From Escherichia coli (GTDB lineage Bacteria; Pseudomonadota; Gammaproteobacteria; Enterobacterales; Enterobacteriaceae): DNA of 64,000 bases. The stretch lies in the NCBI RefSeq assembly GCF_048403405.1, contig NZ_CP183129.1; one strand, 5' to 3'. The notes beneath the pieces are model-generated. The model had not been told where the DNA came from. It saw only the letters and a list, made by a program, of their open reading frames with translations, and made no database searches. Shown in pieces: positions 1 through 42,358 of this stretch (the stretch's first letter is position 1; the number at the start of each line of letters is the position of its first letter). Made by a program: the position numbers and the translations under genes.

Positions 1-370
1 GAATGTAGAAGAAAAATATTTCGATACCGTCCTGGCCGGACTGTGTGTGGGTTATGCCACCGAAAGACATGCGGGCACCAAAAAAGAGGTCTGCACCTGC
101 GTCGGCAATGTCGATTTACAGATGGGACGTGACCTGACAACCGTGCGTAAAGTCGTCGGATCCGGCGGATGGCTCTCGCGTGCCAGTCAGTTCGATATGC
201 ATCACTGGTTGAAATACCGCGAGTTAAACGACGACGGTAAACGCATTCTCTTACCGACCGAATTTGAATATTACCGCGATTCCCGGGGGCTATTACCACT
301 GCTGGCAAACGTCGCCAGAGTCGATCCGCTGGCCGCCGCGCGCACCAGTATTCAATGCTTAACCCTATAA
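1..370 (+). CDS. 5'-truncated CDS, probable glutamate mutase accessory component L (GlmL/MutL-like), C-terminal part
   Basis: Reading frame is open from window position 2 to the stop at 368-370; lies immediately upstream of the glmE-like gene as in known glmS-glmL-glmE operons; identity inferred from gene order, not from a recognised motif. Confidence 0.5.
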   Translation, partial: NVEEKYFDTVLAGLCVGYATERHAGTKKEVCTCVGNVDLQMGRDLTTVRKVVGSGGWLSRASQFDMHHWLKYRELNDDGKRILLPTEFEYYRDSRGLLPLLANVARVDPLAAARTSIQCLTL

Positions 371-388
371 CAATTAAGGCTGCAATCA

Positions 389-1834
389 ATGGAACTTCGA
401 AATAAGAAATTAACCCATGACGAATTCATGACCGAGCGGCAACAGGTACTGAAAACCTGGGAAACCGGCAAGGATGTTGAAAACTTTGAAGATGGCGTTA
501 AATACCAACAAACCATTCCTGAGCATAAACGCTTCTCTCTTGTGCTGTTGAAAGCAGACAAGGAAGGTAAAACCCTTAGCCAACCGCGCGCAGGTGTGGC
601 GCTGATGGACGAACACATCGAACTACTGAAAACACTACAAGAAGAGTGCGATCTGCTGCCGAGCACTATCGATGCATATACCCGTCTGAATCGGTACGAA
701 GAAGCGGCTGTAGGGATTAAAAAATCCATCGAAGCCGGAACCTCTAAACTGAACGGTTTACCGGTCGTTAACCACGGCGTCGCAGCTTGCCGTCGCCTCA
801 CCGAAACTTTGCAAAAACCGCTACAGATCCGCCACGGCACGCCAGATGCGCGTCTGCTGGCTGAAATCTCGATGTCCAGCGGCTTTACCAGTTATGAAGG
901 CGGCGGCATTTCCTACAATATTCCGTATGCCAAGCGCGTAACGCTGGAAAAATCGATCCGCGACTGGCAGTACTGCGACCGTTTAATGGGGATGTATGAA
1001 GAACACGGGATCCGCATCAACCGCGAACCGTTTGGCCCACTAACGGGTACGCTGATCCCGCCGTTTATCTCGCACTCTATCGCGATAATCGAAGGCTTGC
1101 TGGCGCTGGAACAGGGTGTGAAATCTATCACCGTTGGTTATGGACAGGTCGGCAGCCTGACGCAGGATGTTGCGGCGATCCAGTCTCTGCGTGAACTTGC
1201 ACACGAATATTTTCAGAGCTATGGCTATACCGACTATGAATTAAGTACCGTGTTTCACCAGTGGATGGGCGGCTTTCCGGAAGACGAATCGAAAGCGTTC
1301 GCTATTATCTCCTGGGGCGCAGCCGTCGCGGGGATGTCTGGTGCCACCAAAGTCATCACCAAAAGTCCGCACGAAGCCTGGGGTATCCCGACTGCCGCTG
1401 CCAACATTCAGGGGCTGAAAGCCTCCCGCCAGATGCTCAACATGGTCAACGAGCAGAAATTCCCGCCGTGCCCTGCGGTTGAACTGGAAATTGAACTGAT
1501 TAAGAGCGAGGTTCGCGCGGTACTGAATAAAGTGTTCGAACTGGGTAATGGTGATATTGCGCGCGGTACGGTGCTGGCATTTGAAGCGGGCGTACTGGAT
1601 GTGCCGTTTGCGCCAGCCGCCTGCAACGCGGGCAAAATTCTTCCGGTCCGTGACAACACCGGCGCGATACGCGTACTGGAAGCCGGAGCCGTTCCATTGC
1701 CAAAAGATATTCTCGACCTCCACCACGATTACGTTGCGGAACGCGCACGCTTTGAAGGACGCCAACCGACATTCCAGATGGTTGTAGATGACATCAATGC
1801 TGTATCCCACAGTAAATTAATAGGAAGACCATAA
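389..1834 (+). CDS. glmE: glutamate mutase epsilon (E) subunit, coenzyme B12-dependent methylaspartate mutase
   Basis: 481 aa ORF; N-terminus MELRNKKLTHDEF...PRAGVALMDEH resembles GlmE as I recall it; followed by methylaspartase with overlapping stop/start. Confidence 0.8.
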   Translation: MELRNKKLTHDEFMTERQQVLKTWETGKDVENFEDGVKYQQTIPEHKRFSLVLLKADKEGKTLSQPRAGVALMDEHIELLKTLQEECDLLPSTIDAYTRLNRYEEAAVGIKKSIEAGTSKLNGLPVVNHGVAACRRLTETLQKPLQIRHGTPDARLLAEISMSSGFTSYEGGGISYNIPYAKRVTLEKSIRDWQYCDRLMGMYEEHGIRINREPFGPLTGTLIPPFISHSIAIIEGLLALEQGVKSITVGYGQVGSLTQDVAAIQSLRELAHEYFQSYGYTDYELSTVFHQWMGGFPEDESKAFAIISWGAAVAGMSGATKVITKSPHEAWGIPTAAANIQGLKASRQMLNMVNEQKFPPCPAVELEIELIKSEVRAVLNKVFELGNGDIARGTVLAFEAGVLDVPFAPAACNAGKILPVRDNTGAIRVLEAGAVPLPKDILDLHHDYVAERARFEGRQPTFQMVVDDINAVSHSKLIGRP

Positions 1835-3075
1835 TGAAAATAAAACAGGCTCTGTTCACCGCTGGCTACTCCTCATTCTATTTCGATGACCAGCAGGCGA
1901 TAAAAAACGGAGCGGGTCACGACGGTTTTTTTTATACCGGGGAGCCGGTAACACAGGGGTTTAACGCCGTTCGTCAGGCCGGGGAGTGCGTATCGGTACA
2001 GTTGATTCTGGAAAACGGCGCGGTCGCCGTAGGTGACTGTGCTGCCGTACAGTATTCCGGGGCAGGTGGTCGCGATCCACTGTTCCTCGCAGAGCACTTT
2101 ATTCCGTTCCTCAACGACCATATCAAGCCATTACTGGTAGGCCGCGATGTGGATGCTTTCCTGCCGAATGCCCGTTTCTTCGACAAATTGCGTATTGACG
2201 GCAACTTGCTGCATACCGCCGTGCGCTACGGATTATCACAGGCGCTGCTTGATGCTACCGCGCTGGCAACCGGCCGTCTGAAAACTGAAGTGGTCTGTGA
2301 TGAATGGCAGTTGCCACGCGTGGCGGAATCCATTCCATTATTTGGTCAGAGCGGCGACGATCGATATATCGCCGTCGATAAGATGATCCTTAAGGGCATC
2401 GACGTGCTGCCCCATGCGCTGATTAATAACGTCGAAGAGAAGCTGGGCTTTAAAGGTGAAAAACTGCGCGAATATGTCCGCTGGCTGTCGGATCGTATTC
2501 TGAGCAAGCGCACCAGCGCACGCTACCACCCTACCCTGCACATCGATGTATACGGCACTATCGGTCTGATCTTCGATATGGATCCGCTTCGCTGTGCGCA
2601 ATACATCGCCAGCCTGGAAAAAGAAGCGCAAGGCCTGCCGCTCTACATTGAAGGGCCGGTCGATGCTGGTAACAAGCCCGATCAAATTCGCCTGCTGACC
2701 GCGATTACCAAAGAGCTGACACGCCTCGGTTCCGGCGTGAAAATTGTGGCCGATGAATGGTGTAACACCTACCAGGATATTGTTGATTTCACAGATGCCG
2801 CCAGTTGCCACATGGTGCAAATCAAAACCCCGGATCTGGGCAGTATTCACAACATCGTCGATGCGGTTCTTTACTGCAACAGCCACAGCATGGAAGCGTA
2901 CCAGGGCGGCACCTGCAATGAAACTGATGTCAGTGCCCGCACCTGTGTCCACGTCGCCCTTGCCGCTCGCCCTATGCGTATGCTGGTAAAGCCAGGGATG
3001 GGCTTTGACGAAGGCCTCGATATCGTCTTCAACGAAATGAATCGTACTATCGCGCTGTTGCAGGCTAAGGATTAA
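1834..3075 (+). CDS. 3-methylaspartate ammonia-lyase (beta-methylaspartase)
   Basis: 413 aa, the expected size for methylaspartase (enolase superfamily); start ATG overlaps the glmE stop (TAATG at 1832-1836). Confidence 0.8.
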   Translation: MKIKQALFTAGYSSFYFDDQQAIKNGAGHDGFFYTGEPVTQGFNAVRQAGECVSVQLILENGAVAVGDCAAVQYSGAGGRDPLFLAEHFIPFLNDHIKPLLVGRDVDAFLPNARFFDKLRIDGNLLHTAVRYGLSQALLDATALATGRLKTEVVCDEWQLPRVAESIPLFGQSGDDRYIAVDKMILKGIDVLPHALINNVEEKLGFKGEKLREYVRWLSDRILSKRTSARYHPTLHIDVYGTIGLIFDMDPLRCAQYIASLEKEAQGLPLYIEGPVDAGNKPDQIRLLTAITKELTRLGSGVKIVADEWCNTYQDIVDFTDAASCHMVQIKTPDLGSIHNIVDAVLYCNSHSMEAYQGGTCNETDVSARTCVHVALAARPMRMLVKPGMGFDEGLDIVFNEMNRTIALLQAKD

Positions 3076-3078
3076 CAA

Positions 3079-4449
3079 ATGGCTCGTTCTTTTAAAGTCT
3101 TATCGCCAACGGCAATCCTCGGGTATGGATTCCCGGAAGAGAGCTTCCGTAAAGCGATGGCAGAATCGCCCGATCTGATCGCCGTTGATGCAGGCTCTTC
3201 CGATCCTGGCCCCCACTACCTCGGGGCGGGCAAACCGTTTACCGATCGCGCAGGGGTCAAGCGCGATCTGCGCTATATGATCACCGCAGGCGTGCAAAAT
3301 AATATACCGGTGGTGATCGGAACGGCTGGCGGTTCTGGTGCCGCACCACACCTGGAGTGGTGCCGAGAAATAATTCATGAGATTGCCCAGGAAGAGCACC
3401 TCTCGTTCTCAATGGCGCTGATCCCGGCAGACGTTGACAAAGCCATCGTCCACCAGGCGCTGGATAACGGCAAAATCACGGCGCTGGAGTTTGTCCCGCC
3501 GTTAACCCACGACGCGATTGACGAAAGTACGTATATCGTTGCGCAAATGGGCATCGAACCCTTCCAGCGGGCGCTGAAAGAAGGCGCGCAAGTGGTGCTG
3601 GGCGGGCGCGCTTACGACCCGGCCTGCTTTGCTGCGCTTCCGATCATGCAAGGCTTTGATGAAGGTCTGGCGCTGCATTGTGGGAAAATCCTTGAATGCG
3701 CGGCAATCGCCGCAACGCCCGGCTCAGGCTCTGACTGTGCGATGGGCATCATTGATGACAACGGCTTTACGCTGAAGACATTTAATCCGAAGCGTAAATT
3801 TACCGAAACGTCAGCGGCTGCACACACACTGTATGAGAAATCCGATCCCTACTTCCTGCCTGGACCTGGCGGCGTGTTGAACCTGAAAGGCTGCACATTT
3901 AAAGCGGTCAATGACAGCGAAGTGTACGTCAGCGGTTCTAAGCATGAAGAAACGCCGTATGCCCTGAAACTGGAAGGTGCGCGACGAGTGGGCTTCCGCT
4001 GTCTGACCATCGCAGGAACGCGCGACCCGATCATGATCGCCGGGATCGATAAAATCATCGATGAAGTCAAAACCAGCGTTTCGCGTAACCTGTCGCTCGA
4101 CGATGACAGCATTCGCATCAATTTCCACCTGTACGGCAAAAACGGGGTGATGGGAGACCATGAACCGATGCAAACTGCCGGGCATGAGCTGGGGATTGTC
4201 CTTGATGTAGTTGCACCGACCCAGGAAATTGCCAACAGCGTTTGCTCGCTGGTGCGCTCTACCATGCTGCACTACGGCTATGAAAACCGCATCGCTACCG
4301 CAGGTAATCTGGCGTTCCCGTTCTCCCCTTCTGATATCCAGGGCGGGCCGGTATACGAATTTTCCATATATCACCTGATTGAAGCCAACGACGCTCTGCG
4401 TTTTGATTTCCATATTGAACAGGTGACGCCAGAAGGAGTTCAGGCATGA
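3079..4449 (+). CDS. uncharacterised protein, AtuA/DUF1446-like family (function unknown)
   Basis: 456 aa ORF 3 nt after the methylaspartase stop; family assignment from memory of AtuA-like proteins, unverified. Confidence 0.55.
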   Translation: MARSFKVLSPTAILGYGFPEESFRKAMAESPDLIAVDAGSSDPGPHYLGAGKPFTDRAGVKRDLRYMITAGVQNNIPVVIGTAGGSGAAPHLEWCREIIHEIAQEEHLSFSMALIPADVDKAIVHQALDNGKITALEFVPPLTHDAIDESTYIVAQMGIEPFQRALKEGAQVVLGGRAYDPACFAALPIMQGFDEGLALHCGKILECAAIAATPGSGSDCAMGIIDDNGFTLKTFNPKRKFTETSAAAHTLYEKSDPYFLPGPGGVLNLKGCTFKAVNDSEVYVSGSKHEETPYALKLEGARRVGFRCLTIAGTRDPIMIAGIDKIIDEVKTSVSRNLSLDDDSIRINFHLYGKNGVMGDHEPMQTAGHELGIVLDVVAPTQEIANSVCSLVRSTMLHYGYENRIATAGNLAFPFSPSDIQGGPVYEFSIYHLIEANDALRFDFHIEQVTPEGVQA

Positions 4450-4763
4450 AACAGTCAATTGTCTCACTGGCGCAAGTCATTCGTTCGAAAAATGCCGGAC
4501 CTTACGAACTGGTTTTAGATATTTTATTTAAAACCAAAGAAAACTATGAGCGTGTCAAATCATCAGGGCAATTAACCCCAGAACTGATCGCGCGCTTATA
4601 TCATGTTGAACCTGACTTTATTCATCGTATTGTCTGGTTTGATCCTTCTAACGCAGTAAAAATCGTCATGCCACGAGATATTATCTCCGGGAATGTAGGT
4701 GACAATGATGTCTATGGTGCACAGCAACATGCACCTTTATTAAATATGAGTTTCGATTTGTAA
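4446..4763 (+). CDS. small uncharacterised protein, DUF4387-like partner of AtuA-like proteins
   Basis: 105 aa ORF; start ATG overlaps the upstream stop (ATGA at 4446-4449), indicating translational coupling. Confidence 0.5.
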   Translation: MKQSIVSLAQVIRSKNAGPYELVLDILFKTKENYERVKSSGQLTPELIARLYHVEPDFIHRIVWFDPSNAVKIVMPRDIISGNVGDNDVYGAQQHAPLLNMSFDL

Positions 4764-4923
4764 AAATCCGAATACTTTTAGCCAACTGACATCCCGTCAC
4801 TTATTGCAGTTCAACACTTCAGCTATTTGTAAGGTTGTAATAGCAGGTAGATGCCTGAATCTCTATTCGGGCATCTACTTCTCCTGATTCTGATTTATCG
4901 CCGTGCACCTGATGGAGGAAAAA

Positions 4924-6204
4924 ATGAAGAAAATAAGTTTAACCACGATGATTCTTTTGGCGCTGGTACTTGGAATGATTATCGGCGTAGTGCTCAATAA
5001 CACTGCTTCACCGGAAACCGAAAAACTCTATGCGCAAGAAATATCGATATTCACGACGATTTTCTTACGACTGATAAAAATGATTATCGCTCCGTTAGTG
5101 GTCTCTACCCTGGTGGTAGGTATAGCTAAAATGGGCGATGCCAAAGCCCTTGGTCGTATTTTTTCTAAAACACTCTTTTTATTTATTTGCGCCTCATTGC
5201 TGTCAATTGCCTTAGGCTTGATAACAGTAAATTTCTTCATGCCAGGCACAGGAATTAATTTTGTTGCACACGGAGCCGAAACCACCGGAGTGGTCGCGTC
5301 AGAACCCTTTACGCTAAAAGTATTTATTTCGCATGCTTTCCCCACCAGCATTGTCGATGCCATGGCGCACAATGAAATTTTGCAAATCGTGGTGTTCTCA
5401 ATTTTCCTCGGCTGTAGCCTGACGGCGATTGGCGAGAAAGGCAGCGCCATCGTTCACGCCTTAGATTCGCTGGCACATGCCATGTTAAAGCTCACTGGCT
5501 ACGTCATGCTCTTCGCTCCCCTGACCGTATTCGCTGCTATTTCAGCATTGATTGCTGAACGAGGACTGGCAGTTATGGTGAGCGCCGGGATCTTTATGGG
5601 TGAATTTTATTTCACCATGTTATTACTTTGGGTGCTGCTTATCGGTCTGGCCATCGTTTATGTTGGCCCCTGCATCAGACGCCTGACCCGCGCCCTTTCG
5701 GAACCCGCCCTGCTGGCATTTACCACATCCAGTTCTGAAGCGGCTTTTCCGGGAACGCTTGAAAAACTGGAGCAATTTGGCGTTTCCCCCAAAATTGCCA
5801 GCTTTGTCTTACCCATTGGCTACTCATTTAATCTTGTTGGATCAATGGCCTACTGCTCCTTCGCCACAGTTTTCATCGCCCAGGCCTGCAATATCCATTT
5901 ATCCATCGGTGAGCAAATCACCATGCTGTTGATCCTGATGTTGACCTCGAAAGGAATGGCTGGCGTACCACGCGCCTCAATGGTGGTTATCGCCGCCACG
6001 CTCAACCAGTTCAATATTCCGGAAGCGGGGCTGATCTTGCTGATGGGCGTTGATCCGTTCCTTGATATGGGGCGTTCCGCGACAAACGTCATGAGCAACG
6101 CAATGGGCGCTGCGATGGTGAGTCGGTGGGAAGGCGAACATTTCGGCGAGGGTTGTCGGGGTAAAGCATTAAAACCCAATGAATCGAACGTTGCTCTGCC
6201 CTGA
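4924..6204 (+). CDS. sodium:dicarboxylate symporter family transporter (glutamate/aspartate or C4/C5-dicarboxylate:cation symporter-like)
   Basis: About 426 aa, highly hydrophobic multi-helix protein; GGAGG 5 nt upstream of the ATG at 4924 (longest ORF begins at 4903). Confidence 0.75.
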   Translation: MKKISLTTMILLALVLGMIIGVVLNNTASPETEKLYAQEISIFTTIFLRLIKMIIAPLVVSTLVVGIAKMGDAKALGRIFSKTLFLFICASLLSIALGLITVNFFMPGTGINFVAHGAETTGVVASEPFTLKVFISHAFPTSIVDAMAHNEILQIVVFSIFLGCSLTAIGEKGSAIVHALDSLAHAMLKLTGYVMLFAPLTVFAAISALIAERGLAVMVSAGIFMGEFYFTMLLLWVLLIGLAIVYVGPCIRRLTRALSEPALLAFTTSSSEAAFPGTLEKLEQFGVSPKIASFVLPIGYSFNLVGSMAYCSFATVFIAQACNIHLSIGEQITMLLILMLTSKGMAGVPRASMVVIAATLNQFNIPEAGLILLMGVDPFLDMGRSATNVMSNAMGAAMVSRWEGEHFGEGCRGKALKPNESNVALP

Positions 6205-6311
6205 GGGGGATCTTAAGCAATCAGAAGCCAATGACTACGCATTTTTATAAGCCGGATCATGAAGTTAGACGGCAATTAAGTAAAACTAACGTTTAAGGTG
6301 AAAAGTGAAAT

Positions 6312-7964
6312 ATGTCCAAACCATTTATCTGGCAAGAACCGTTTCTACAAAATAAAGACGGTACAGAATATACATTAATTAGCGATCAACATATTACAGT
6401 AACGGAATTAGACGGCGAAGAAGTAATAAAAATCGCTCCTGAAGCATTAACGCTGCTTGCCCGGCAGGCATTTTATGAAGCCTCTTTTTTCTTACGTTCC
6501 GCTCATTTGCAACAGGTCGCCAGCATTCTTAACGATCCGCAGGCCAGTAGTAATGATAAATACGTTGCGTTGCAGTTATTACGTAATGCTGAAGTCTCAG
6601 CAAAAGGGGTATTACCCAACTGTCAGGATACCGGCACCGCAACTATTGTTGCCAGTAAAGGGCAACAGATATGGACGGGAGGTAACGACGCTGAAGCCTT
6701 AAGCAAAGGCATTTACAGTACTTTCCAGGAAAATAACCTGCGCTTTTCACAAAATGCGCCGCTGGATATGTACACCGAAGTCAATACGCAAACCAATCTC
6801 CCGGCGCAGATTGATATCAGCGCTGTCGCTGGTGATGAGTACCATTTTCTCTGTATTAATAAAGGGGGCGGCTCTGCCAATAAAGCCGCGCTTTATCAGG
6901 AAACCAAATCCTTATTGCAACCAGAAAAACTGACCGCATTTTTAATCGAAAAAATGAAATCGCTGGGCACCGCTGCCTGCCCGCCTTACCACATCGCCTT
7001 TGTCGTCGGAGGGCTTTCAGCCGATCAAACCTTAAAAGTTGCCAAGCTGGCCTCAACGAAATATTACGACAATTTGCCCACCAGCGGAAACGAGCAAGGA
7101 CAAGCATTCCGTGATATTGAGCTGGAAAAAGTATTGCTCGAGGCCAGTCAGCAATTTGGTATTGGTGCGCAATTTGGAGGTAAATATTTCGCTCATGATA
7201 TTCGCGTCATTCGTCTGCCGCGTCACGGTGGCTCCTGCCCGATAGCTATGGCGCTCTCCTGTTCTGCCGATCGCAATATCAAAGCAAAAATTAACAAGCA
7301 CGGTATCTGGCTGGAAAAACTCGAACACAATCCGGGGCAATATATTCCAGCCTCACTGCGGGAAGAAAATCACGCGCAACATGTACAACTGGATCTAAAC
7401 CGTCCGTTGCGTGACGTGATGCAGGATCTCGCCAGATTACCGGTAGGCACCCGCGTGTCGTTAAGTGGTCCCATCGTAGTGGCACGCGATATCGCCCACG
7501 CCAAAATAAAAGCGCGGCTGGATAACGCCGAACCGATGCCGGATTACCTGAAGCATCATATTGTCTATTACGCTGGCCCGGCGAAAACACCGGAGAACAT
7601 GGCCTGCGGTTCACTGGGTCCAACCACGGGCGGTCGAATGGACGGTTATGTCGATACCTTCCAGGCGGCTGGCGGCAGTCTGGTGATGTTATCGAAAGGT
7701 AACCGCAGCCAGCAGGTCACCGATGCCTGTCACAAACATGGTGGCTTCAATCTGGGTAGTATTGGCGGTGCAGCTGCGTTACTGGCGCAAGAATATGTCA
7801 AAAGTCTGCGTTGCCTGGAATACCCGGAGCTGGGTATGGAAGCGGTGTGGATGATGGAAGTGGAAAATCTGCCCGCATTCATCCTGGTAGATGATAAAGG
7901 CAATAATTTCTTTAGTCAGTTTGAGCAGCAACACCGCTGCGCCAGTTGCCCTGCGGGACATTAA
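6312..7964 (+). CDS. fumD: class I fumarate hydratase family protein, probable mesaconase/fumarase (FumD-like)
   Basis: 550 aa, FumA/FumB-like length; C-terminal Cys-rich tail; located in the methylaspartate operon. Confidence 0.75.
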
Positions 7965-7973
7965 GGAAAATGA

Positions 7974-8576
7974 ATGGAAGCGCGAATTTCAACTGAACGG
8001 CATGTGCAGCGCCAGCAGAAATTGAAGGAACAGGTCGATACGCGCGTCGCGGCGGCGATAGAGAAAAAAGGGATTTTGATTGTTTTCACCGGCAATGGCA
8101 AAGGGAAATCCACTGCCGCGTTTGGTACTGTGACGCGCGCGGTGGGTCATGGCAAAACGGTGGGGGTTGCGCAGTACATCAAGGGGCAATGGGACAACGG
8201 CGAATACAACCTTCTCCAGCCGCTGGGGGTTGAGTTTCATATTATGGGAACCGGTTTTACCTGGGAGACACAGAACCGGCAAGCGGATATCGACGCGGCG
8301 AAAGAGGTCTGGTCGGAAAGCAAACGGATGCTGGCTGACAAGCGTTACGACTTAGTGGTGCTTGATGAGCTGACCTATATGCTGGCTTACCATTATCTGG
8401 ACACCGAAGAAGTGATCGCTTCTCTGCAAAACCGCCCGGCACAACAAAGTGTCATTGTCACCGGACGCGGTTGCCACAGTCAGATATTAAAAATGGCGGA
8501 TACGGTCAGCGAAATCCGCCCCGTCAAACATGCTTTTGATAACGGCATTCAGGCGCAGCCGGGTATCGACTGGTAA
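7974..8576 (+). CDS. corrinoid (cob(I)alamin) adenosyltransferase, BtuR/CobO-family paralog
   Basis: 200 aa with P-loop-like FTGNGKGKSTAAFG motif; close resemblance to E. coli BtuR (about 196 aa) as recalled. Confidence 0.8.
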   Translation: MEARISTERHVQRQQKLKEQVDTRVAAAIEKKGILIVFTGNGKGKSTAAFGTVTRAVGHGKTVGVAQYIKGQWDNGEYNLLQPLGVEFHIMGTGFTWETQNRQADIDAAKEVWSESKRMLADKRYDLVVLDELTYMLAYHYLDTEEVIASLQNRPAQQSVIVTGRGCHSQILKMADTVSEIRPVKHAFDNGIQAQPGIDW

Positions 8577-8609
8577 TAACTGCGCCTGGCATCCCGCCAG
8601 GCGCAGGTT

Positions 8610-9515
8610 TTACATCTCCTGCGGTACGACCGATTTCGCCAGCAACCATTCACGAAATTGCTGCAAGTGCGGCGAGTCAGACTTCTCTTCCTGCCACGTC
8701 ATAATAAAACGATTACCGGTACGAATAGGCACATCACAGGGAATCACCATATCGCCACTATCCAAATCATGTTGAATAGCGAACCGTGGTAACAGCGCCA
8801 CGCCGAGATTAGAGCGCACGGCGGCAATCAGCATTGAAAGCAAATCGAAACGTGGTCCGTTATTGACCAGCGGACTGCTAACGCCAGATAAAGCAAACCA
8901 CTCTTCCCAGCCAGTAATACGGGTGCTTTGATGCAGAAGTGGTAACTCAGTAAGCAGTTCTGCCACTGACAGTTTTTGATCGGACATTGCAAGCAAACTG
9001 CCGCTGCATACCGGCAAAATCTCCTCATCAAAGAGATATTCTACTTCCGCCCAGGGCGCGCAAAAATTTTCGCGCATAATGACAGCATCGTACTCCCGAT
9101 TAAGAAAATCGCCGTTATTAGCTAAAGAATGAATATTAACAATAATATCGGGATGTAACTTTGTGAATTCATGTAAATTTGGGATTAACCAGTGGGTACT
9201 AAAAGTAGGATTAACGGCAAGTTCAATAACCTGAACCGTAGGCTGCCAGGTCATAATGGTATTGGTATCGCGTTCCAGCTTATTTAATGTTTCTTTTACT
9301 ATCCCCAGGTAATACTTCCCTGCATCATTAAGAAAAATACGTTTTTTAGAGTGTGAAAATAACGGAGTATGTAAAAATTCCTCCAGCGCACTCACTTGTC
9401 TGAATACAGCACTTTGGGTTAACGCTAACTCCTCTGCCGCTCTGGTATAACTTTCATGACGTGCGACGACCTCAAAAGTCACCAGCAGCTCCGTTTTAGG
9501 TATTTTTCCTCGCAT
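8610..9515 (-). CDS. LysR-family transcriptional regulator
   Basis: 301 aa; N-terminal helix-turn-helix (LVTFEVVARHESYTRAAEELALTQSAVFRQVSALE) plus a substrate-binding-domain-sized C-terminus. Confidence 0.85.
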   Translation of the reverse strand: MRGKIPKTELLVTFEVVARHESYTRAAEELALTQSAVFRQVSALEEFLHTPLFSHSKKRIFLNDAGKYYLGIVKETLNKLERDTNTIMTWQPTVQVIELAVNPTFSTHWLIPNLHEFTKLHPDIIVNIHSLANNGDFLNREYDAVIMRENFCAPWAEVEYLFDEEILPVCSGSLLAMSDQKLSVAELLTELPLLHQSTRITGWEEWFALSGVSSPLVNNGPRFDLLSMLIAAVRSNLGVALLPRFAIQHDLDSGDMVIPCDVPIRTGNRFIMTWQEEKSDSPHLQQFREWLLAKSVVPQEM

Positions 9516-10080
9516 AATGCCGTCCCTTAAAAATAGTTTAAACCATCAAAAATACATTACTTATTACGAAGTAATGGTAACCAAAGCAGCAATAAATAAT
9601 TTATAAGAATCATGATTGACATTTATAACCCAGTAAGCCTGGCGTGACAAATATCTTAATCAGATAATAATAATCCGAAAAGCACAGCGCCTTTCGAATT
9701 ATCCGGAATCACATTAAGTGAAAATTATTAAATTGATATCATTTATCATATCTGTGGATATTATGATAAACAATCAACAAAGATTTTATTTTTGATTTAT
9801 AGCATATCCCTCTAAGAATTTTTGCGATGCTGCAATATCCGGGTAAAGACCCGATCCTGGCTGACAAATGGCACGACTTGACGATAAGCGGTGAACATCG
9901 CTTTTGTTGATTTACTTAACGCTACGGTCAAACGCTGGGAAGCCAGTGCATCAGGTAACGATTCGAAATTCGCCGTCGTTCTTATTCGTGGCTTGCGGTC
10001 GGTTGCGGCAATCCACAGTGGCTGTGGTCATGCAGTCAAGCCAGCGGTCAGATTTCGACCGTGGTTAACATTTAAGGCAT

Positions 10081-10179
10081 AAAAAAGGCCATCATACGAT
10101 GGCCAACCATGTCGAAACCGACAGCCCTTCGCCATTCCTGTAGAGGGAAGCGGCGAGGGCTATTTCTTATTACAGATAT
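10081..10179 (-). ncRNA. sdhX: 3'UTR-derived small RNA SdhX (RybD) at the end of the sdh-suc operon, with intrinsic terminator
   Basis: Lies immediately 3' of the sucD stop on the minus strand; ends in hairpin GGCCATCGTATGATGGCC followed by a T-run (plus strand 10081-10104); identity recalled from E. coli K-12. Confidence 0.5.
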
Positions 10180-11049
10180 TTATTTCAGAACAGTTTTCAG
10201 TGCTTCACCGATATCCGCCAGGCTGCGAACGGTTTTCACGCCTGCGGCTTCCAGAGCAGCGAATTTCTCATCCGCAGTCCCTTTTCCACCGGCAATGATC
10301 GCACCCGCGTGGCCCATACGTTTGCCTTTCGGCGCAGTCACACCAGCGATGTAACCCACAACAGGCTTGGTAACGTGCTCTTTGATGTACGCAGCCGCTT
10401 CTTCTTCAGCGCTACCGCCGATCTCACCGATCATCACGATCGCTTCGGTCTGCGGATCTTTTTCGAACATTTCGAGGATGTCGATAAAGTTAGAGCCAGG
10501 GATCGGGTCGCCGCCGATACCAACACAGGTCGACTGACCGAAACCGTAATCCGTGGTCTGTTTCACCGCTTCATAGGTCAGTGTACCGGAACGGGAAACG
10601 ATACCCACTTTACCCGGTTTGTGAATGTGACCAGGCTGGATACCGATTTTGCATTCACCCGGAGTGATAACGCCTGGGCAGTTCGGGCCGATCATGCGAA
10701 CGCCCGCTTCATCCAGTTTCACCTTCACGGTCAGCATATCCAGCGTCGGGATGCCTTCAGTGATGGTGATAATCAGTTTGATGCCTGCATCAATAGCTTC
10801 CAGAATGGAGTCTTTGCAGAACGGTGCTGGTACGTAGATAACAGAAGCGGTAGCGCCAGTAGCAGCAACAGCTTCACGCACGGTGTTGAACACCGGCAGG
10901 CCGAGGTGGGTGGTGCCGCCTTTACCTGGGGTTACGCCGCCAACCATTTTAGTGCCGTATGCAATGGCCTGTTCTGAGTGGAAAGTCCCCTGGCTACCGG
11001 TAAAGCCCTGGCAGATAACCTTGGTGTTTTTATCAATTAAAATGGACAT
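10180..11049 (-). CDS. sucD: succinyl-CoA synthetase alpha subunit
   Basis: 289 aa; [33 protein letters not shown]; canonical operon position. Confidence 0.96.
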
Positions 11050-16506: not shown

Positions 16507-16691
16507 GCATTTCTTTTGTAGGCCGGATAAGGCATTCACGCCGCATCCGGCGCTGTTTGCCTGATGCGACGCTTGCGCGTCTTATCAGGCCTACGATTTC
16601 TGCATTTCTTTTGTAGGCCGGATAAGGCGTTCACGCCGCATCCGGCACTGGTTGCCTGATGCGACGCTTGTGCGTCTTATCAGGCCTGGGT
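16507..16691. repeat. two tandem REP/BIME-type palindromic units (about 95 bp each) between sucA and sdhB
   Basis: Near-identical direct copies beginning GCATTTCTTTTGTAGGCCGGATAAGGC...GCCTGATGCGACGCTTG.GCGTCTTATCAGGCCT at 16507 and 16602. Confidence 0.75.
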
Positions 16692-22918: not shown

Positions 22919-25378
22919 ATGGACACCGTGAATATTTATCGACTCTCTTTTATATCCTGTCTGGTCATGGCGATGCCTTGCGCATTGGCGGTCGAATTCA
23001 ATCTGAATGTTCTCGATAAATCAATGCGCGACCGCATTGATATTTCATTATTAAAGGAAAAAGGAGTCATTGCTCCCGGTGAATATTTTGTTAGCGTTGC
23101 GGTGAATAACAACCAAATCAGTAATGGGCAAAAAATCAACTGGCAAAAAAAGGGGGACAAAACCATTCCATGCATCAATGATTCACTGGTCGATAAATTT
23201 GGTTTAAAACCAGATATCCGTCAGTCCTTGCCACAGATAGATCGGTGTATTGATTTCAGTTCCCGACCTGAAATGCTCTTCAATTTCGATCAAGCCAATC
23301 AGCAACTGAATATCACTATTCCACAAGCCTGGCTGGCGTGGCACTCAGATAACTGGACTCCCCCCTCAACATGGAAAGAAGGTGTCGCCGGCGTCCTGAT
23401 GGACTACAACCTGTTTGCTAGCAGCTACCGCCCACAGGATGGTAGCAACAGCACTAACCTGAACGCCTATGGAACAGCCGGAATTAACGCGGGAGCATGG
23501 CGTTTACGCAGTGATTACCAATTGAATCAGACCGATAGCGATGATAACCATGAACAGTCAGGCGAAATATCACGCACCTATCTTTTTCGTCCATTACCGC
23601 AATTAGGTTCAAAATTAACCCTTGGTGAAACGGATTTCAGTTCCAATATTTTCGACGGCTTTTCTTATACCGGCGCGGCACTGGCAAGTGACGATCGGAT
23701 GTTACCGTGGGAGCTACGCGGCTACGCCCCACAAATCAGCGGCATTGCACAAACCAACGCCACCGTCACCGTGAGTCACTCAGGGCGAGTTATTTACCAG
23801 AAAAAAGTCCCACCAGGTCCGTTTATCATTGATGACCTTAATCAGTCCGTCCAGGGTACGTTGGATGTCAAAGTGACGGAAGAAGATGGTCGGGTGAACA
23901 ATTTCCAGGTTTCGGCAGCATCGACTCCCTTCCTGACTCGCCAGGGACAGGTTCGCTATAAATTGGCCGCGGGTCAGCCACGGCCCTCCATGTCACATCA
24001 AACTGAAAATGAAACCTTTTTTAGCAATGAAGTTTCCTGGGGGATGCTGTCAAATACCTCGCTGTACGGCGGCCTGCTGATTTCGGGTGACGACTACCAT
24101 TCTGCCGCAATGGGTATCGGGCAAAATATGCTCTGGCTTGGTGCATTGTCGTTTGATGTCACCTGGGCCAGTAGTCAGTTTGATACTCAGCAGGACGAGC
24201 GGGGCTTAAGTTACCGCTTTAATTACAGCAAACAAGTGGATGCCACTAACAGCACGATTTCGCTCGCCGCTTATCGCTTCTCAGATCGTCATTTTCACAG
24301 CTACGCCAACTATCTGGATCACAAATACAACGACAACGATGCGCAGGACGAAAAACAGACGATCAGCTTATCCGTGGGGCAACCGATTACCCCACTGAAC
24401 TTCAATCTGTACGCCAACCTGCTGCATCAAACCTGGTGGAATGCAGACGCCTCCACGACCGCCAACATCACGGCGGGTTTTAATGTTGATATTGGTAACT
24501 GGAGAGATATCTCGATCTCGACGTCATTCAATACAACCCATTACGAAGATAAAGATCGCGACAATCAGATTTACCTGTCGATTTCGCTCCCCTTCGGTAA
24601 CGGGGGGCGGGTCGGTTATGACATGCAAAACAGTAATCACAGCACCACGCACCGCATGTCGTGGAATGATACGTTAGATGAACGTAATAGCTGGGGCATG
24701 TCTACCGGACTGCAATCCGACCGTCCGGATAATGGAGCCCAGGTGAGCGGTAACTATCAGCACCTGAGTTCAGCGGGTGAGTGGGATATTTCTGGTACCT
24801 ATGCCGCCAATGATTACAGTTCCGTCAGCAGCAGCTGGAGCGGTTCTTTCACGGCAACTCAATATGGTGCAGCGTTCCATCGTCGCAGCTCCACCAATGA
24901 ACCACGTCTGATGGTCAGTACCGATGGCGTGGCAGATATTCCGGTTCAGGGCAATCTCGACTACACCAACCATTTTGGCATTGCGGTGGTGCCGTTGATT
25001 TCCAGTTATCAGCCTTCCACCGTGTCGGTGAACATGAATGATTTACCCGACGGCGTAACAGTGGCAGATAACGTTATCAAAGAAACGTGGATTGAAGGCG
25101 CGATAGGTTACAAATCGCTGGCTTCCCGTTCCGGTAAAGACGTTAACGTCATCATTCGCAACGCCAGCGGTCAGTTCCCTCCCCTCGGTGCGGATATCCG
25201 CCAGGATGATAGCGGCATTAGCGTGGGGATGGTTGGCGAGGAAGGACATGCCTGGTTAAGTGGAGTCGCTGAAAATCAACAATTTACCGTGGTCTGGGGT
25301 GATAGCCAGCGTTGCTCGATCCATCTTCCTGAACATATGGAAGACACCGCAAATCGCCTGATTTTACCTTGTCATTAA
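22919..25378 (+). CDS. ybgQ: fimbrial outer-membrane usher protein
   Basis: About 820 aa; start ambiguous (ATG 22877 or 22919, GTG 22928). Confidence 0.85.
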   Translation: MDTVNIYRLSFISCLVMAMPCALAVEFNLNVLDKSMRDRIDISLLKEKGVIAPGEYFVSVAVNNNQISNGQKINWQKKGDKTIPCINDSLVDKFGLKPDIRQSLPQIDRCIDFSSRPEMLFNFDQANQQLNITIPQAWLAWHSDNWTPPSTWKEGVAGVLMDYNLFASSYRPQDGSNSTNLNAYGTAGINAGAWRLRSDYQLNQTDSDDNHEQSGEISRTYLFRPLPQLGSKLTLGETDFSSNIFDGFSYTGAALASDDRMLPWELRGYAPQISGIAQTNATVTVSHSGRVIYQKKVPPGPFIIDDLNQSVQGTLDVKVTEEDGRVNNFQVSAASTPFLTRQGQVRYKLAAGQPRPSMSHQTENETFFSNEVSWGMLSNTSLYGGLLISGDDYHSAAMGIGQNMLWLGALSFDVTWASSQFDTQQDERGLSYRFNYSKQVDATNSTISLAAYRFSDRHFHSYANYLDHKYNDNDAQDEKQTISLSVGQPITPLNFNLYANLLHQTWWNADASTTANITAGFNVDIGNWRDISISTSFNTTHYEDKDRDNQIYLSISLPFGNGGRVGYDMQNSNHSTTHRMSWNDTLDERNSWGMSTGLQSDRPDNGAQVSGNYQHLSSAGEWDISGTYAANDYSSVSSSWSGSFTATQYGAAFHRRSSTNEPRLMVSTDGVADIPVQGNLDYTNHFGIAVVPLISSYQPSTVSVNMNDLPDGVTVADNVIKETWIEGAIGYKSLASRSGKDVNVIIRNASGQFPPLGADIRQDDSGISVGMVGEEGHAWLSGVAENQQFTVVWGDSQRCSIHLPEHMEDTANRLILPCH

Positions 25379-37706: not shown

Positions 37707-38210
37707 TTAAATTTTCTTATGTAATAGAGGTGAATAATCTTCCCAAAAATCCATACAAGCTTTACTTGCATAAAAGAATCCAGCGTCTGATTCATAAGAC
37801 ATAAACTGTGCAATAATAGATAGTTGTATATCTGAAAAATTAAAAACAAAATTCAAAAAATCATCGTGATCCCGATACTCAGGACATAAATATTGTTGAA
37901 TAAAATCGGATTCAAAAACCCAAAAATCATTCTTATTAAACAACGAGGCATAAATATACAGAGGGATGTAATAGCAGAATACTTTCTCAGGGAGGAATGT
38001 AATTCCTAACTCTAAAGCATAAGAGTCATCCTTTATTTTAAAATTGTTGGCTATTTCATTCCATTGTTTCTTTTGGAAAAAATTATATACAATATCCAGT
38101 TCCTCCAGCCCTGTAATATCATTTGAAATATGAGGTAATGGCTGGCATGGGAAATGAATCATAAGTTCATCATAGACTGCACTCTCGTTAGAGAAAATTA
38201 TTTTTTTCAT
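37707..38210 (-). CDS. candidate Rhs immunity protein (RhsI-like), cognate to the main Rhs toxin tip
   Basis: 167 aa from [16 protein letters not shown]; its ATG overlaps the rhs stop (ATGA at 38207-38210); low-GC, no signal peptide; position directly 3' of the toxin gene. Confidence 0.6.
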
Positions 38211-41200
38211 TTTATTAAGCCACTGCAATCAGCTGCTGTTTTATATGCTTTATTCTCTTCTTCCATATGGGCCTTATCTCCACCACCAAAGCACTGATTA
38301 TTAATCTGCTTTCTGACCGAAGCGCACGCCAAATTTATCTCGTACCGTCTCAATATTTCTTTTCTCAGCATCTGAGGAGCGCAAGCTCTAGACTGGTTAC
38401 ATAATCTGTTTTTTTCATTTTGTAAGTCACTCAGGTTCTGGGGACTACAGTTACCACCAGGATTTACACCTGACTTATGTTCATCTGTTAATTTGTCGGC
38501 TTCTGGATTAACTTTACGGCCATATTGATCTCTGCGTTGTTGCCCACTTTGGATAACACCACCTGATGAAAATAAACCGCAACTCATCAGTGCTACAACA
38601 CTAAGAATTAACGGATTTAACCCTTGTGGGTCTATCTCTGAGATCGGATTTAACGGATACTGATAAAAATTCCATCCCCCCTTAAGCCCAATCGGATCCT
38701 GAGTGATATACCGCCCCTGCAGCGGGTCATAATAGCGGTGGCGGTTGTAATACAGGCCGGACTCCTCATCATACTGCTGACCCGGCAGGCGGATGAGCTG
38801 CTGCAGCTGATGCGGGTTCTCTTCATTCAGCAGGTTGCCCCATTCATCGTATTCTGCGTACCACGCTGTTGTCCCTTCCGTGCTGACAAGCGCCAGCGGC
38901 AGGCCGCGATGGTCGCAGTGGTACAGGTGGATTTTTCGCGCCGGCGTGTACACCGGGTCCATCTGGTTTTGCATCTGCTCCACCGTCAGGCCGCACGATG
39001 CCAGCCAGCGGCGGCTTTCCTCGCTCACCCGGTCAGTAAGGATTTCACTTTCCAGCCGGTCGAGCATCTGCACCAGCACCGGCGGGAACACCACTCTGCC
39101 ACCGTCTTCGCCGCCGGACTGCTGAAGGGCATCCGCCAGGCTGCGGCGCTGCGTTTTCGCCAGCTCACCGGTGGCGGTTTCAACTCTGATGAGTGGCGTG
39201 AAGCTCCCCGGCTGATAAACCGTCTGGATGCGGGTTCTGTCGTTCTGTATTGTGGTCAGCCGGTCGCCGTCCCAGCCGTACCAGGTCACTTCCGGTTTCC
39301 GTGACAGCGACATCCAGCCCGTCAGGTCCCGTTCACGCCGCCATACCCGTTTTGCCACCCTGCGGCCCAGCGGGTCGTAAAGATAGCGACTTTCGACCAG
39401 CGGCTCTGCATATTGTGTCCGCGTGTAGTGCACCAGCCGGTGCCGGCTGTCGTAATGATACCGGTGAGTCCGCTCATCATCCGTGCGGATAACCCCTTCC
39501 GGGATGAGGTCGGTTTTCTCTGTCAGCCTGCCGTGACGGTCATACCGGTAAAGATAGTGCGCGTCACGGGCGATACGGTTATCCGGCCACATGCTGAGGG
39601 TGCTGTCCGGGTGCAGCTCCGGGTCGGGCAGGCGGTTGCCTGCCGGGTCCGTGGCATACGGGATGCGGATATCCAGATTCGCTGCGGTGGTGTGGACGCC
39701 GGTCAGCCTGCCGGTGTCGCTGTAGCTGTAACTCCGGGTCTGGCGCGGGCTGCTGATGCGGATGAGTTCGCCGTTGTCGTTCCAGGTGTAATCGCGGTCA
39801 TACTGCAGGCTGTTCAGGTGCTGGCTCTGTAACTGCCCGGCAGAGGTGTAAGCGGTGGTGAGTTCATAACGGCCGAAGCTGCGCAGCGTTTCCCGGTGCA
39901 GGCGGTCGCGGGTGAAATCCACCAGCGGTGTGTCGCCGAGTTTCATGCCTGACAGCCAGCCGCTGCCGTAGGTCAGCCATTCCACGGCGGGCAGGCTGTC
40001 CGGTATACAGCGGTTCGCCAGTCCCTGCGCGTTGTACGCATGTCTGGTTTCATGCTGCCAGAGCAGTGCTTCCGTCTGCGGGTGATGCACCGTCTGGCGC
40101 TCACCGGTCAGGCGGCCTTTCTCATCATACCCGTAATGCACCGTCACCCGGTGGCCTTCGCTGAGATGGCTGATGCCTGTCAGCCAGCCGCGTTCGTCAT
40201 ACTGCCACTGCTCTGCAGGTTCACCCTTCACGGTGCGGTGAGTGAGGCGGTCTGCTTCGTCATAGTGCCAGTGGGTGACCAGCCCCTCATCCTCGCTGCG
40301 GATAAGTTTACCGGTCAGGTCGTGGTGATAACGCTGTGTGCGGCCGTCAAAGCCGGTTTCCTGTATCAGCCGGTCAAGTACATCGTAACGGAAGGTGGTG
40401 TGGCTGCCGTTTTCACTGGTCAGGCGGATGACCCGCCCGGCAGCATCGTATTCCATACTGCGCGTCAGACCGCCCTGCGTGGTACGAACGGGCTTTCCCC
40501 ACGCATCGTACTGTGTCCCGTTTCTGCTGCCGTCCGGGGCAATGACGGCGGTCAGGTCACCGGCGGCGTTGTATTCATACCGCGTTTCATGGCCCTGCGT
40601 GTCTTTCACCGCAATTAACTGTCCACGGCTGTCGTATGCGCGGTACTGACTCAGCCCTTCCTCGCGGTGCACCGCCGTCACCTGACCAAAACGGTCATGG
40701 TCATAACGGGTTACATAACCGGAACAGTCAGTGACGGTCAGCAACTGACCGTAACGGCTCCATGTCATGGTTTTCCGGCTGCCGGTGGCATCTTCCGTTG
40801 CGCAGGGTAAGTCACTGTGTGGATTATCATAACGGTAGCGGGTGATATCGCCGTTGTGTGCGGTTTCCTGAATCAGACGGCCGGATTCATCATATTTGCG
40901 GCGCAACTCCAGCCCGTCAGTCCCGGTGGCTGACGTTAACTGGTTGTGGTGGTTATAGTAAAATGCCGATGCCCTGCCATCCGGTGTGGTGATGCGCGTG
41001 ATGAGTCCCGTCACCACATCCGGGCTGTACTCAGTCGTCCGGCCTGCGGCATCCGTCTGTGCCTTAAGCCCGCCCACCGCGTCAAACTGACTCTGCGTGA
41101 CGCTGCCGTCCGCGTGTTCCTTTTTCACCACCCGCTTCAGCCCGCCTTCGCCCTGCGTGTGCAGCACTTCACGGCGGTCCAGACTGTCGGTGATGGTGAT

Positions 41201-42358
41201 GCGGTCTTTCTCATACTGATACGTGTAGCTTAAGCCTGCCGGGTTTAGCTGTTCTGTCACCCGCCCGTCGCTGTCGTAACGGTAACGGATATCCGGCCGG
41301 CCCGTGTGACGGTGCGCCACCATCCGGCCCCGGTATTTATCATCGTAAGTAAAGCTGCGCACCTGTGTATTGCTGCGGTCATACACCGCCGCCAGTTCGC
41401 CGCGTGGCGTCCAGCCATAGCGCACCAGCGGCGCGGCAGGTAAATTCTCCGGGTATTCCGGGTCGTGCGTCAGCCACACGGCAGACAGACGGATGCCGTT
41501 GTCCCGGCCATATTCGGTGTAACCCGGCAGGGTATCAGGAAAAACGGACGGTTCCGTCCCGCCGGAAATGGCCTGCTGCCGGGCTTCTTCTGCCCGCTGC
41601 GCCTGCGTGGTCAGTACCAGCCGGAAGTGACGCCCGGCACCATCCGTCACGCCGGTGATTTCGCCGCTGAATTCGCCGCCAGCCTCACGGTGAAACGTCT
41701 GTGTGCGCCCGAAGCGGTCCACCAGCCCGGTCAGTACCCGGTACGGCGGCAGCGGCGCGGGCAGCACCTCATCCGCCTCCGGCACCCGCTCACACCAGCC
41801 GAGTACCCACCACGGCCCCTGCGGACTGTTTGTCGCCAGATAACGATGCGGACTCAGGCGAAGCTCTTCCGGCAGCGCCTGCCAGAGTGCGGCCAGCCGG
41901 TGACCTTCATCCAGTTTCGCCACGCCGCCGCGCACCAGCCAGAGTGACTCGCTGCGGCTGTAACCGTCCTCACCGGGAAACAGGTGCTCAAAATACAGGC
42001 TTCTGCCGCCGTTATCACTGAGTGTCAGTGTGTTATCGCGCAGCTGTAAGCGGATATCCGCAGGCATTTTCCAGCCGGGGCCGAGGCTCCCCACCGGCGC
42101 GGGCGTTTTTGTCCGGTAACTGCTGTAGGTGCGGGAGAGGATGAACGGCAGCGGGCCGGGCAGGGCAAGGTCGGTTTCGCCGGGAAGGACCTTCGCACCG
42201 AGCAGCGGATTGACCGGATGGCCGGACGTCACCCCGCCGGGGCACACCGAACAGGCCACGCCGGTGGGGGCACCAATACGTACCCCGGCTGAACCCTGAA
42301 CAATGCTACCGCCATACTGCGTCATGTCGCCCTGACGCGCCGCCGGTTTTCCGCTCAT
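38207..42358 (-). CDS. rhsC: Rhs-family polymorphic toxin (YD-repeat protein with variable C-terminal toxin domain)
   Basis: 1383 aa; N-terminus [34 protein letters not shown]; many YD repeats; conserved core end ...[17 protein letters not shown]...DPQGL followed by a unique Cys-rich tail; symbol from synteny with ybfA-kdp. Confidence 0.85.

Follow-up and report, generated by a model that had tools for sequence, protein, structure and literature searches.

The fumD locus and its neighbors

The window (the whole stretch of Escherichia coli DNA analyzed, 64 kb) was read from its ORF list and translation. A single uninterrupted frame of 550 codons and a stop, opening with ATG, was found at 6312..7964 (+ strand), and stops were present throughout the strand opposite. 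AAGGTG, a plausible Shine-Dalgarno-like motif, lies about 11 nt 5' of the ATG. The product (550 aa) is comparable in length to FumA and FumB (548 aa each). The frame, named fumD below, follows a transporter gene after 107 bp and is separated from cobO by 9 bp, all on one strand. Both the ORF and its position in the operon are real. The features of the locus were as follows:

1..370, + strand: glmL, 3' portion (reactivase/accessory protein of glutamate mutase); its start lies left of the window (coordinate transfer from TUM14771 glmL, record 4789797-4791185; ORF fragment 47..370)
389..1834, + strand: glmE, glutamate (methylaspartate) mutase subunit E (NCBIfam TIGR01503, 863 bits vs. cut-off 390; RefSeq agrees)
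1834..3075, + strand: mal, methylaspartate ammonia-lyase, predicted to make mesaconate, the FumD substrate (TIGR01502, 544 bits vs. cut-off 286)
3079..4449, + strand: AtuA-family (DUF1446) protein, putative CmlA equivalent, large subunit of a CoA-independent citramalate lyase (match to PDB 9erq_A/9evf)
4446..4763, + strand: DUF4387 protein, putative CmlB equivalent, small subunit of citramalate lyase (match to PDB 9erq_B)
4924..6204, + strand: SDF-family dicarboxylate/amino acid:cation symporter (sub-threshold with the NCBIfam models DctA, 313 bits, and GltP, 303 bits; RefSeq start)
6312..7964, + strand: fumD, class I [4Fe-4S] mesaconase/fumarase (identity, family models, clade and active-site residues)
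7974..8576, + strand: cobO/cobA, corrinoid adenosyltransferase, predicted to supply adenosylcobalamin for glutamate mutase (TIGR00708, 247 bits vs. cut-off 168)
8580..8606, no strand: GC-rich hairpin (stem of 11 bp, 9 of them GC) in the gap where cobO and LysR converge (hairpin scan)
8610..9515, - strand: LysR-family regulator, convergent with the operon and also a neighbor of fumD/cobO in other genera

An alternative GTG start for the symporter was present at 4903. As glmL, glmE and mal all lie 5' of fumD on the same strand, the gene stands in a glm-mal context. No strong terminator-like hairpin was detected by the hairpin scan between the transporter and fumD, and no sigma-70-like site was found in this gap; total hits of the promoter scan were below the shuffle expectation, hence the scan is uninformative on an internal promoter. 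An Rfam scan of the window returned no RNA element in or near fumD. Judged by spacing alone, fumD is probably co-transcribed with the rest of the operon, the promoter of which lies outside the window. The hairpin at 8580..8606 is probably a bidirectional terminator marking the operon 3' end.

The syntenic order in O157:H7 RIMD 0509939 was glmS-glmL-glmE-mal-AtuA-DUF4387-symporter-class I fumarate hydratase-cobO; LysR and sucDCBA come next, on the opposite strand. An order of glmS-glmL-glmE-mal-AtuA-DUF4387-SDF-(glutaminase)-fumD-(cobO)-LysR was kept in Pseudescherichia vulneris, Buttiauxella and E. fergusonii, and in Buttiauxella the whole cluster, fumD included, was located away from the suc operon. 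The Buttiauxella glutaminase gene (L009 8936-9937) lies between the transporter and fumD, which fits glutamine or glutamate as the starting material.

In the window, the island fills the sucD-cydA interval (1-10180), the slot occupied by sdhX-mngR-mngA-mngB in K-12. The same interval in TUM14771 and O157:H7 comprised the island and two hypothetical genes, without mngRAB, and both the island and mngR/mngA-like genes were present in E. fergusonii. A housekeeping gltP was found elsewhere in TUM14771, the genome near-identical to the window. Further along the window, two tandem Rfam naRNA4 (REP-derived) matches were recorded in the sdhB-sucA intergenic region (16521-16686). By coordinate transfer from the TUM14771 annotation, a ybgQ fimbrial usher pseudogene with an internal stop was placed at about 22919-25378, and the gene for an RHS core protein, with RHS and ISAs1 fragments behind it, at about 38207-42358.

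Identity of the gene as fumD

An earlier, sequence-only reading of this DNA had taken the gene for an extra class I fumarase paralog acting as the mesaconase step of the island, and had proposed an alignment against FumA, FumB and O157:H7 FumD as a check. In that alignment the window protein was 69% identical to K-12 FumA, 67% to FumB and 98.7% to the protein of the syntenic O157:H7 locus (543/550 residues; 98.5% at the nucleotide level). The 7 differences from O157:H7 FumD (P76Q, I182V, V243I, N405S, A406G, D411E and V447I) were conservative, and none was catalytic or clade-diagnostic. For the window fumD vs. the O157 allele, dN/dS was 0.11. A dedicated FumD mesaconase in E. coli O157:H7, which the same reading had named as background, is confirmed by the literature: the gene is named fumD (ECs0757 / ECATCC700728_0849), and the enzyme was characterized by Kronen & Berg (PLoS One 2015; PMC4682846).

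The published FumD cloning primers (PMC4682846) matched the window at 6312-6333 (+) and 7947-7964 (-) with zero mismatches, at both ends of the ORF. Sakai locus tags gave the same gene; SucD is ECs0754 in two independent papers, and counting on through LysR, cobO and fumD leads to ECs0757, as published. A literature search for expression of the island by its Sakai tags returned suc/sdh genes only, which bore out the tag numbering. The window protein was far closer to ECs0757 than to FumA or FumB and was assigned as its orthologue. The gene is the already known, published FumD itself and not a new paralogue.

Family models agreed with this assignment. The NCBIfam equivalog for the 550-aa type (NF011921) was passed at 1284 bits (cut-off 1060), while scores fell below the cut-off for the FumA model (928 vs. 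1105 bits) and for NF011920, the other class I model, taken as that of FumB (922 vs. 1094 bits). The gene context was glm-mal-cml-cobO and not fumC-fumA-manA or dcuB-fumB, so neither model score nor context identified a housekeeping FumA or FumB. TIGR00722 matched residues 79-324 at 99.7 bits, narrowly missing its cut-off of 100.65, and TIGR00723 matched residues 372-535 at 179 bits, above cut-off. The N-terminal PF05681 (Fumerase) and the C-terminal PF05683 (Fumerase_C) are both recorded for a 98%-identical cluster representative and for orthologues. The product is thus a single-chain class I fumarase of the FumA/FumB type, with two fused domains in about 550 aa.

Among 5426 complete E. coli genomes searched by megablast, fumD was found in 1121 (about 21%), and was full-length in 1121/1121 at a nucleotide identity of at least 95%. 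O157:H7 strains matched the window fumD at 98.5%. One of 1122 fumD matches was located on a plasmid, and the chromosomal fumD allele of strain XJ5.2 was interrupted by IS1A. A fumA-type match (fumA and/or fumB) was present in 5425 of the 5426 genomes (median, 2 copies).

The other fumarase genes were read in E. coli TUM14771, which was 99.94% identical to the window across all 64 kb (38 ungapped mismatches). In this genome, fumC and fumA were found at the tus-fumC-fumA-manA locus and fumB beside dcuB. With fumA, fumB and fumC present, fumD is the fourth fumarase gene there. The sequence-only reading had named a closer identity to FumA/FumB, together with a missing fumA or fumB, as evidence that would speak against it; both halves fail, as the protein is far closer to FumD and the near-identical TUM14771 has all three of the other genes.

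Active-site residues and the FumD clade

Residues 18-536 of the window protein were aligned to Leishmania major FH-2 (LmFH-2; PDB 5l2r) with E = 4e-211 and about 59% identity, close enough for this crystal structure to settle the fold. In a preprint built on the LmFH structure, the cluster ligands are given as Cys133, Cys252 and Cys346, the catalytic residues as Asp135, His334, Thr467, Thr468 and Arg471, and the substrate-binding residues as Gln134, Arg173, Gly216, Arg421 and Lys491. All of these were conserved in the window protein (13/13). C104, C223 and C317 of the N-terminal domain aligned with the three [4Fe-4S] ligands, and D106, H305, T438, T439, R442, Q105, R144, G187, R392 and K462 with the remaining residues.

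The sequence-only reading had described a 550-aa protein of FumA/FumB length inside the operon, with a C-terminal Cys cluster. Length, ORF and operon position held, but the cysteines in question are a CxxC pair (C543 and C546; window 7936-7949) and not the catalytic cluster site. The pair lies beyond the region alignable with LmFH, which ends at residue 536, and FumA and FumB carry it too, at identical positions, so it neither marks the Fe-S site nor tells FumD apart. As a candidate Fe-S site it was ruled out, the ligands being C104, C223 and C317. The CxxC was conserved without exception in FumA, FumB and the FumD clade, and was present in 38-39 of 40 other enterobacterial class I fumarases sampled, the gaps including LmFH-2.

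In a database search, FumD-like proteins were graded from 98% down to about 75% identity. They came from E. coli, Citrobacter, Enterobacter, Buttiauxella, the Klebsiella oxytoca group, Salmonella enterica subspecies salamae and diarizonae, E. fergusonii and Pseudescherichia, and the next tier, at about 70% identity, consisted of Hafnia and Providencia proteins. An alignment including FumA, FumB and Leishmania FH was used to delimit the clade. The group comprised 77 sequences, whose identity was 75% or more with FumD and did not exceed 68.6% with FumA. In a neighbor-joining tree, the FumD clade was monophyletic in 100/100 bootstraps, and the FumA+FumB pair was recovered in 100/100. Five metagenome proteins (P0075, P0076, P0082, P0084 and P0085) were mosaic and were left out of the clade definition. 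In these ENA-source, metagenome-derived sequences, FumA/B and FumD signatures were mixed along the length; they are probably assembly chimeras between paralogues, with real recombinants as the alternative.

Nine positions were diagnostic, given here as the residue in the FumD clade, then the residue in FumA/B, Hafnia and Providencia:

Residue 7: W in the FumD clade, Y in the others
Residue 39: I in the FumD clade, L in the others
Residue 312: A in the FumD clade, G in the others
Residue 366: L in the FumD clade, M in the others
Residue 379: G in the FumD clade, S in the others
Residue 389: V in the FumD clade, I in the others
Residue 461: S in the FumD clade, A in the others
Residue 480: N in the FumD clade, Y in the others
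Residue 514: M in the FumD clade, K in the others

The window protein carried the FumD-clade residue at 9/9 positions of this signature, which was derived in the present analysis. LmFH-2 had the FumA/B-type residue at 6/9; position 7 was unaligned, and positions 366 and 379 differed from the FumA/B consensus. A440G, beside the catalytic Thr pair, was considered as a specificity determinant and rejected as not diagnostic, since Gly is also found there in FumA-like proteins of Hafnia and Providencia.

An extra Cys, C432 (window 7605-7607), was observed six residues before the catalytic Thr438. Cys was found at this position in 67 of the 77 clade members, and Ser in the FumA/B type. It is a tentative suggestion from residue comparison, and one that we hold with more doubt than confidence, that the nine clade-fixed substitutions may tilt the preference of a class I fumarase to the substrate bearing the methyl group and that Cys432 may add to oxygen sensitivity, which is reported to be stronger, indeed extreme, in FumD. 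The strongest candidates for specificity may be A->S461, which adjoins the substrate-binding Lys462, I->V389, 3 residues from Arg392, and G->A312, 5 residues from the ligand Cys317. In the literature searched, no published work was found on the nine clade substitutions or Cys432 as determinants of specificity or oxygen sensitivity.

Predicted mesaconase function and the proposed methylaspartate route

Gene identity, catalytic residues, clade, gene order and the presence of fumA, fumB and fumC were determined in this analysis, and the kinetics were taken from the literature on the orthologue, which differs by 7 residues. For O157:H7 FumD, kcat/Km is 2e6 M-1 s-1 with mesaconate and 7.5e5 M-1 s-1 with fumarate (PMC4682846). 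Mesaconate is preferred by no more than 2- to 3-fold, and it is fumarate that gives the higher Vmax (671 vs. 292 U/mg; PMC4682846). The Km for fumarate is 0.9 mM, about 4- to 10-fold worse than that of FumA or FumB, and the relative efficiencies of FumA and FumB with mesaconate are 4% and 19%, respectively (PMC4682846). Since mesaconate is hydrated by FumA and FumB as well, FumD may not be indispensable. The O157:H7 enzyme is strictly oxygen-sensitive, and reactivation by Fe2+ and thiol was shown (PMC4682846). By analogy with this assayed protein, 7 residues apart, the window allele would also prefer mesaconate.

The reading of the ORF as fumD, a fourth fumarase gene in about one fifth of E. 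coli strains, encoding a single-chain, oxygen-labile class I [4Fe-4S] hydro-lyase that would convert mesaconate to (S)-citramalate and retain fumarase activity, is given a probability of roughly 0.9. The proposal of an extra class I fumarase paralog as the mesaconase step of the island was supported, with 98.7% identity to FumD, exact primer matches and an orthologue that prefers mesaconate.

In the proposed pathway, glutamate mutase (glmS, glmL and glmE) would convert glutamate to methylaspartate, from which mal would form mesaconate. FumD would catalyze the third step, from mesaconate to (S)-citramalate, and CmlAB would split (S)-citramalate to pyruvate and acetate, the transporter and the corrinoid adenosyltransferase completing the operon. 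By phmmer, the AtuA-family protein (3079..4449) aligned over its whole length with PDB 9erq_A/9evf, deposited as 'Citramalate lyase, subunit A (cmlA)' (about 92% identity, E = 8.8e-292), and the DUF4387 protein matched 9erq_B, 'Citramalate lyase, subunit B (cmlB)' (E = 5e-57). Raoultella CmlAB splits citramalate to pyruvate and acetate and has been used as a citramalate lyase (bioRxiv 10.64898/2026.01.16.699985). A full-text literature search for a primary paper on CmlAB or on the function of DUF1446/DUF4387 returned none, only this preprint, in which the enzyme is used. If the CmlAB assignment holds, all steps of the methylaspartate route, from glutamate through to pyruvate and acetate, would appear to be encoded in the operon, the last link drawing on PDB entry names and the preprint. 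We infer flux through the pathway in vivo, and use of the FumD product by CmlAB, for E. coli.

What becomes of (S)-citramalate was given as unknown in 2015 (PMC4682846), and CmlAB would supply this missing step. RefSeq labels the three genes 'class I fumarate hydratase', 'AtuA family' and 'DUF4387', and NCBIfam gives no function for the latter two; the evidence supports annotation as mesaconase FumD and citramalate lyase CmlAB. On the CmlAB reading, about 21% of complete E. coli genomes would have every step of a B12-dependent conversion of glutamate to pyruvate, acetate and ammonia, which bears on gut colonization and on C5-dicarboxylate pathway engineering.

Three other explanations were weighed against the mesaconase reading. 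FumD could be mainly a redundant third class I fumarase for the TCA cycle or fumarate respiration, a role reflected in the sdhCDAB-sucABCD adjacency. The strong fumarase activity kept by the enzyme (Vmax 671 U/mg, kcat/Km 7.5e5), the conservation of all fumarate-binding residues and the island directly adjoining sucD agree with such a role, but fumD is on the strand opposite sucD, 9 bp from cobO and oriented with glm-mal-cml, and the Buttiauxella cluster retains fumD away from the suc operon. The operon context, the 4- to 10-fold poorer fumarate Km (0.9 mM) and the three other fumarase genes already present (fumA, fumB and fumC) make a purely fumarase role unlikely, and the explanation as a whole is considered very improbable. 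It is about as improbable that fumD survives in E. coli as a cryptic remnant, silent in effect and without a physiological role today. A dN/dS of 0.11 (purifying selection), full-length genes at 95% nucleotide identity or above in 1121/1121 matching genomes, intact catalytic residues and conservation of the whole cluster across genera all argue against decay. In favor of a silent remnant are the single genome with an IS1-disrupted allele and the O157:H7 strain ATCC 700728, in which neither expression nor pathway activity was detected under any condition tried.

An alternative that leaves FumD as a mesaconase is that the operon serves uptake and degradation of external C5-dicarboxylates (mesaconate, citramalate or methylaspartate) and not glutamate fermentation. 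This was judged improbable, since the glutamate mutase, its reactivase and a dedicated adenosyltransferase are conserved in the cluster and are hard to explain unless glutamate is the substrate; the glutaminase added in Buttiauxella points the same way. In its favor, the transporter scored about equally with DctA (313 bits) and GltP (303 bits), below both cut-offs, a housekeeping gltP exists elsewhere, and O157:H7 ATCC 700728 showed no growth on glutamate under the conditions tried by Kronen & Berg (PMC4682846). Methylaspartase activity was also absent in that strain, which, like the lack of growth, counts against the main reading. The mesaconase reading within a glutamate-degrading operon was retained as the preferred one.

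Compared with known systems, the window gene shares its chromosomal locus, neighbors, length and primer sites with O157:H7 fumD; the difference lies in the host, a non-O157 background whose nearest complete genome is the human fecal isolate TUM14771. FumA and FumB have the same fold, two-domain single chain, three Fe-S Cys, catalytic residues and CxxC, and both have some mesaconase activity, but they differ in their opposite substrate preference, the nine diagnostic substitutions and their contexts (fumC-fumA-manA and dcuB-fumB). All cluster ligands and active-site residues are held in common with LmFH-2 (PDB 5l2r), a eukaryotic enzyme without the C-terminal CxxC tail. Clostridial MesAB catalyzes the same reaction, has the same role in the methylaspartate pathway and clusters with glutamate mutase and methylaspartase, but it is a heterodimer and belongs to another branch of the class I family. 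In clostridia, the clusters carry a citramalate lyase of the citrate-lyase type (CitDEF homologues), whereas the window operon carries the AtuA/DUF4387-type CmlAB.
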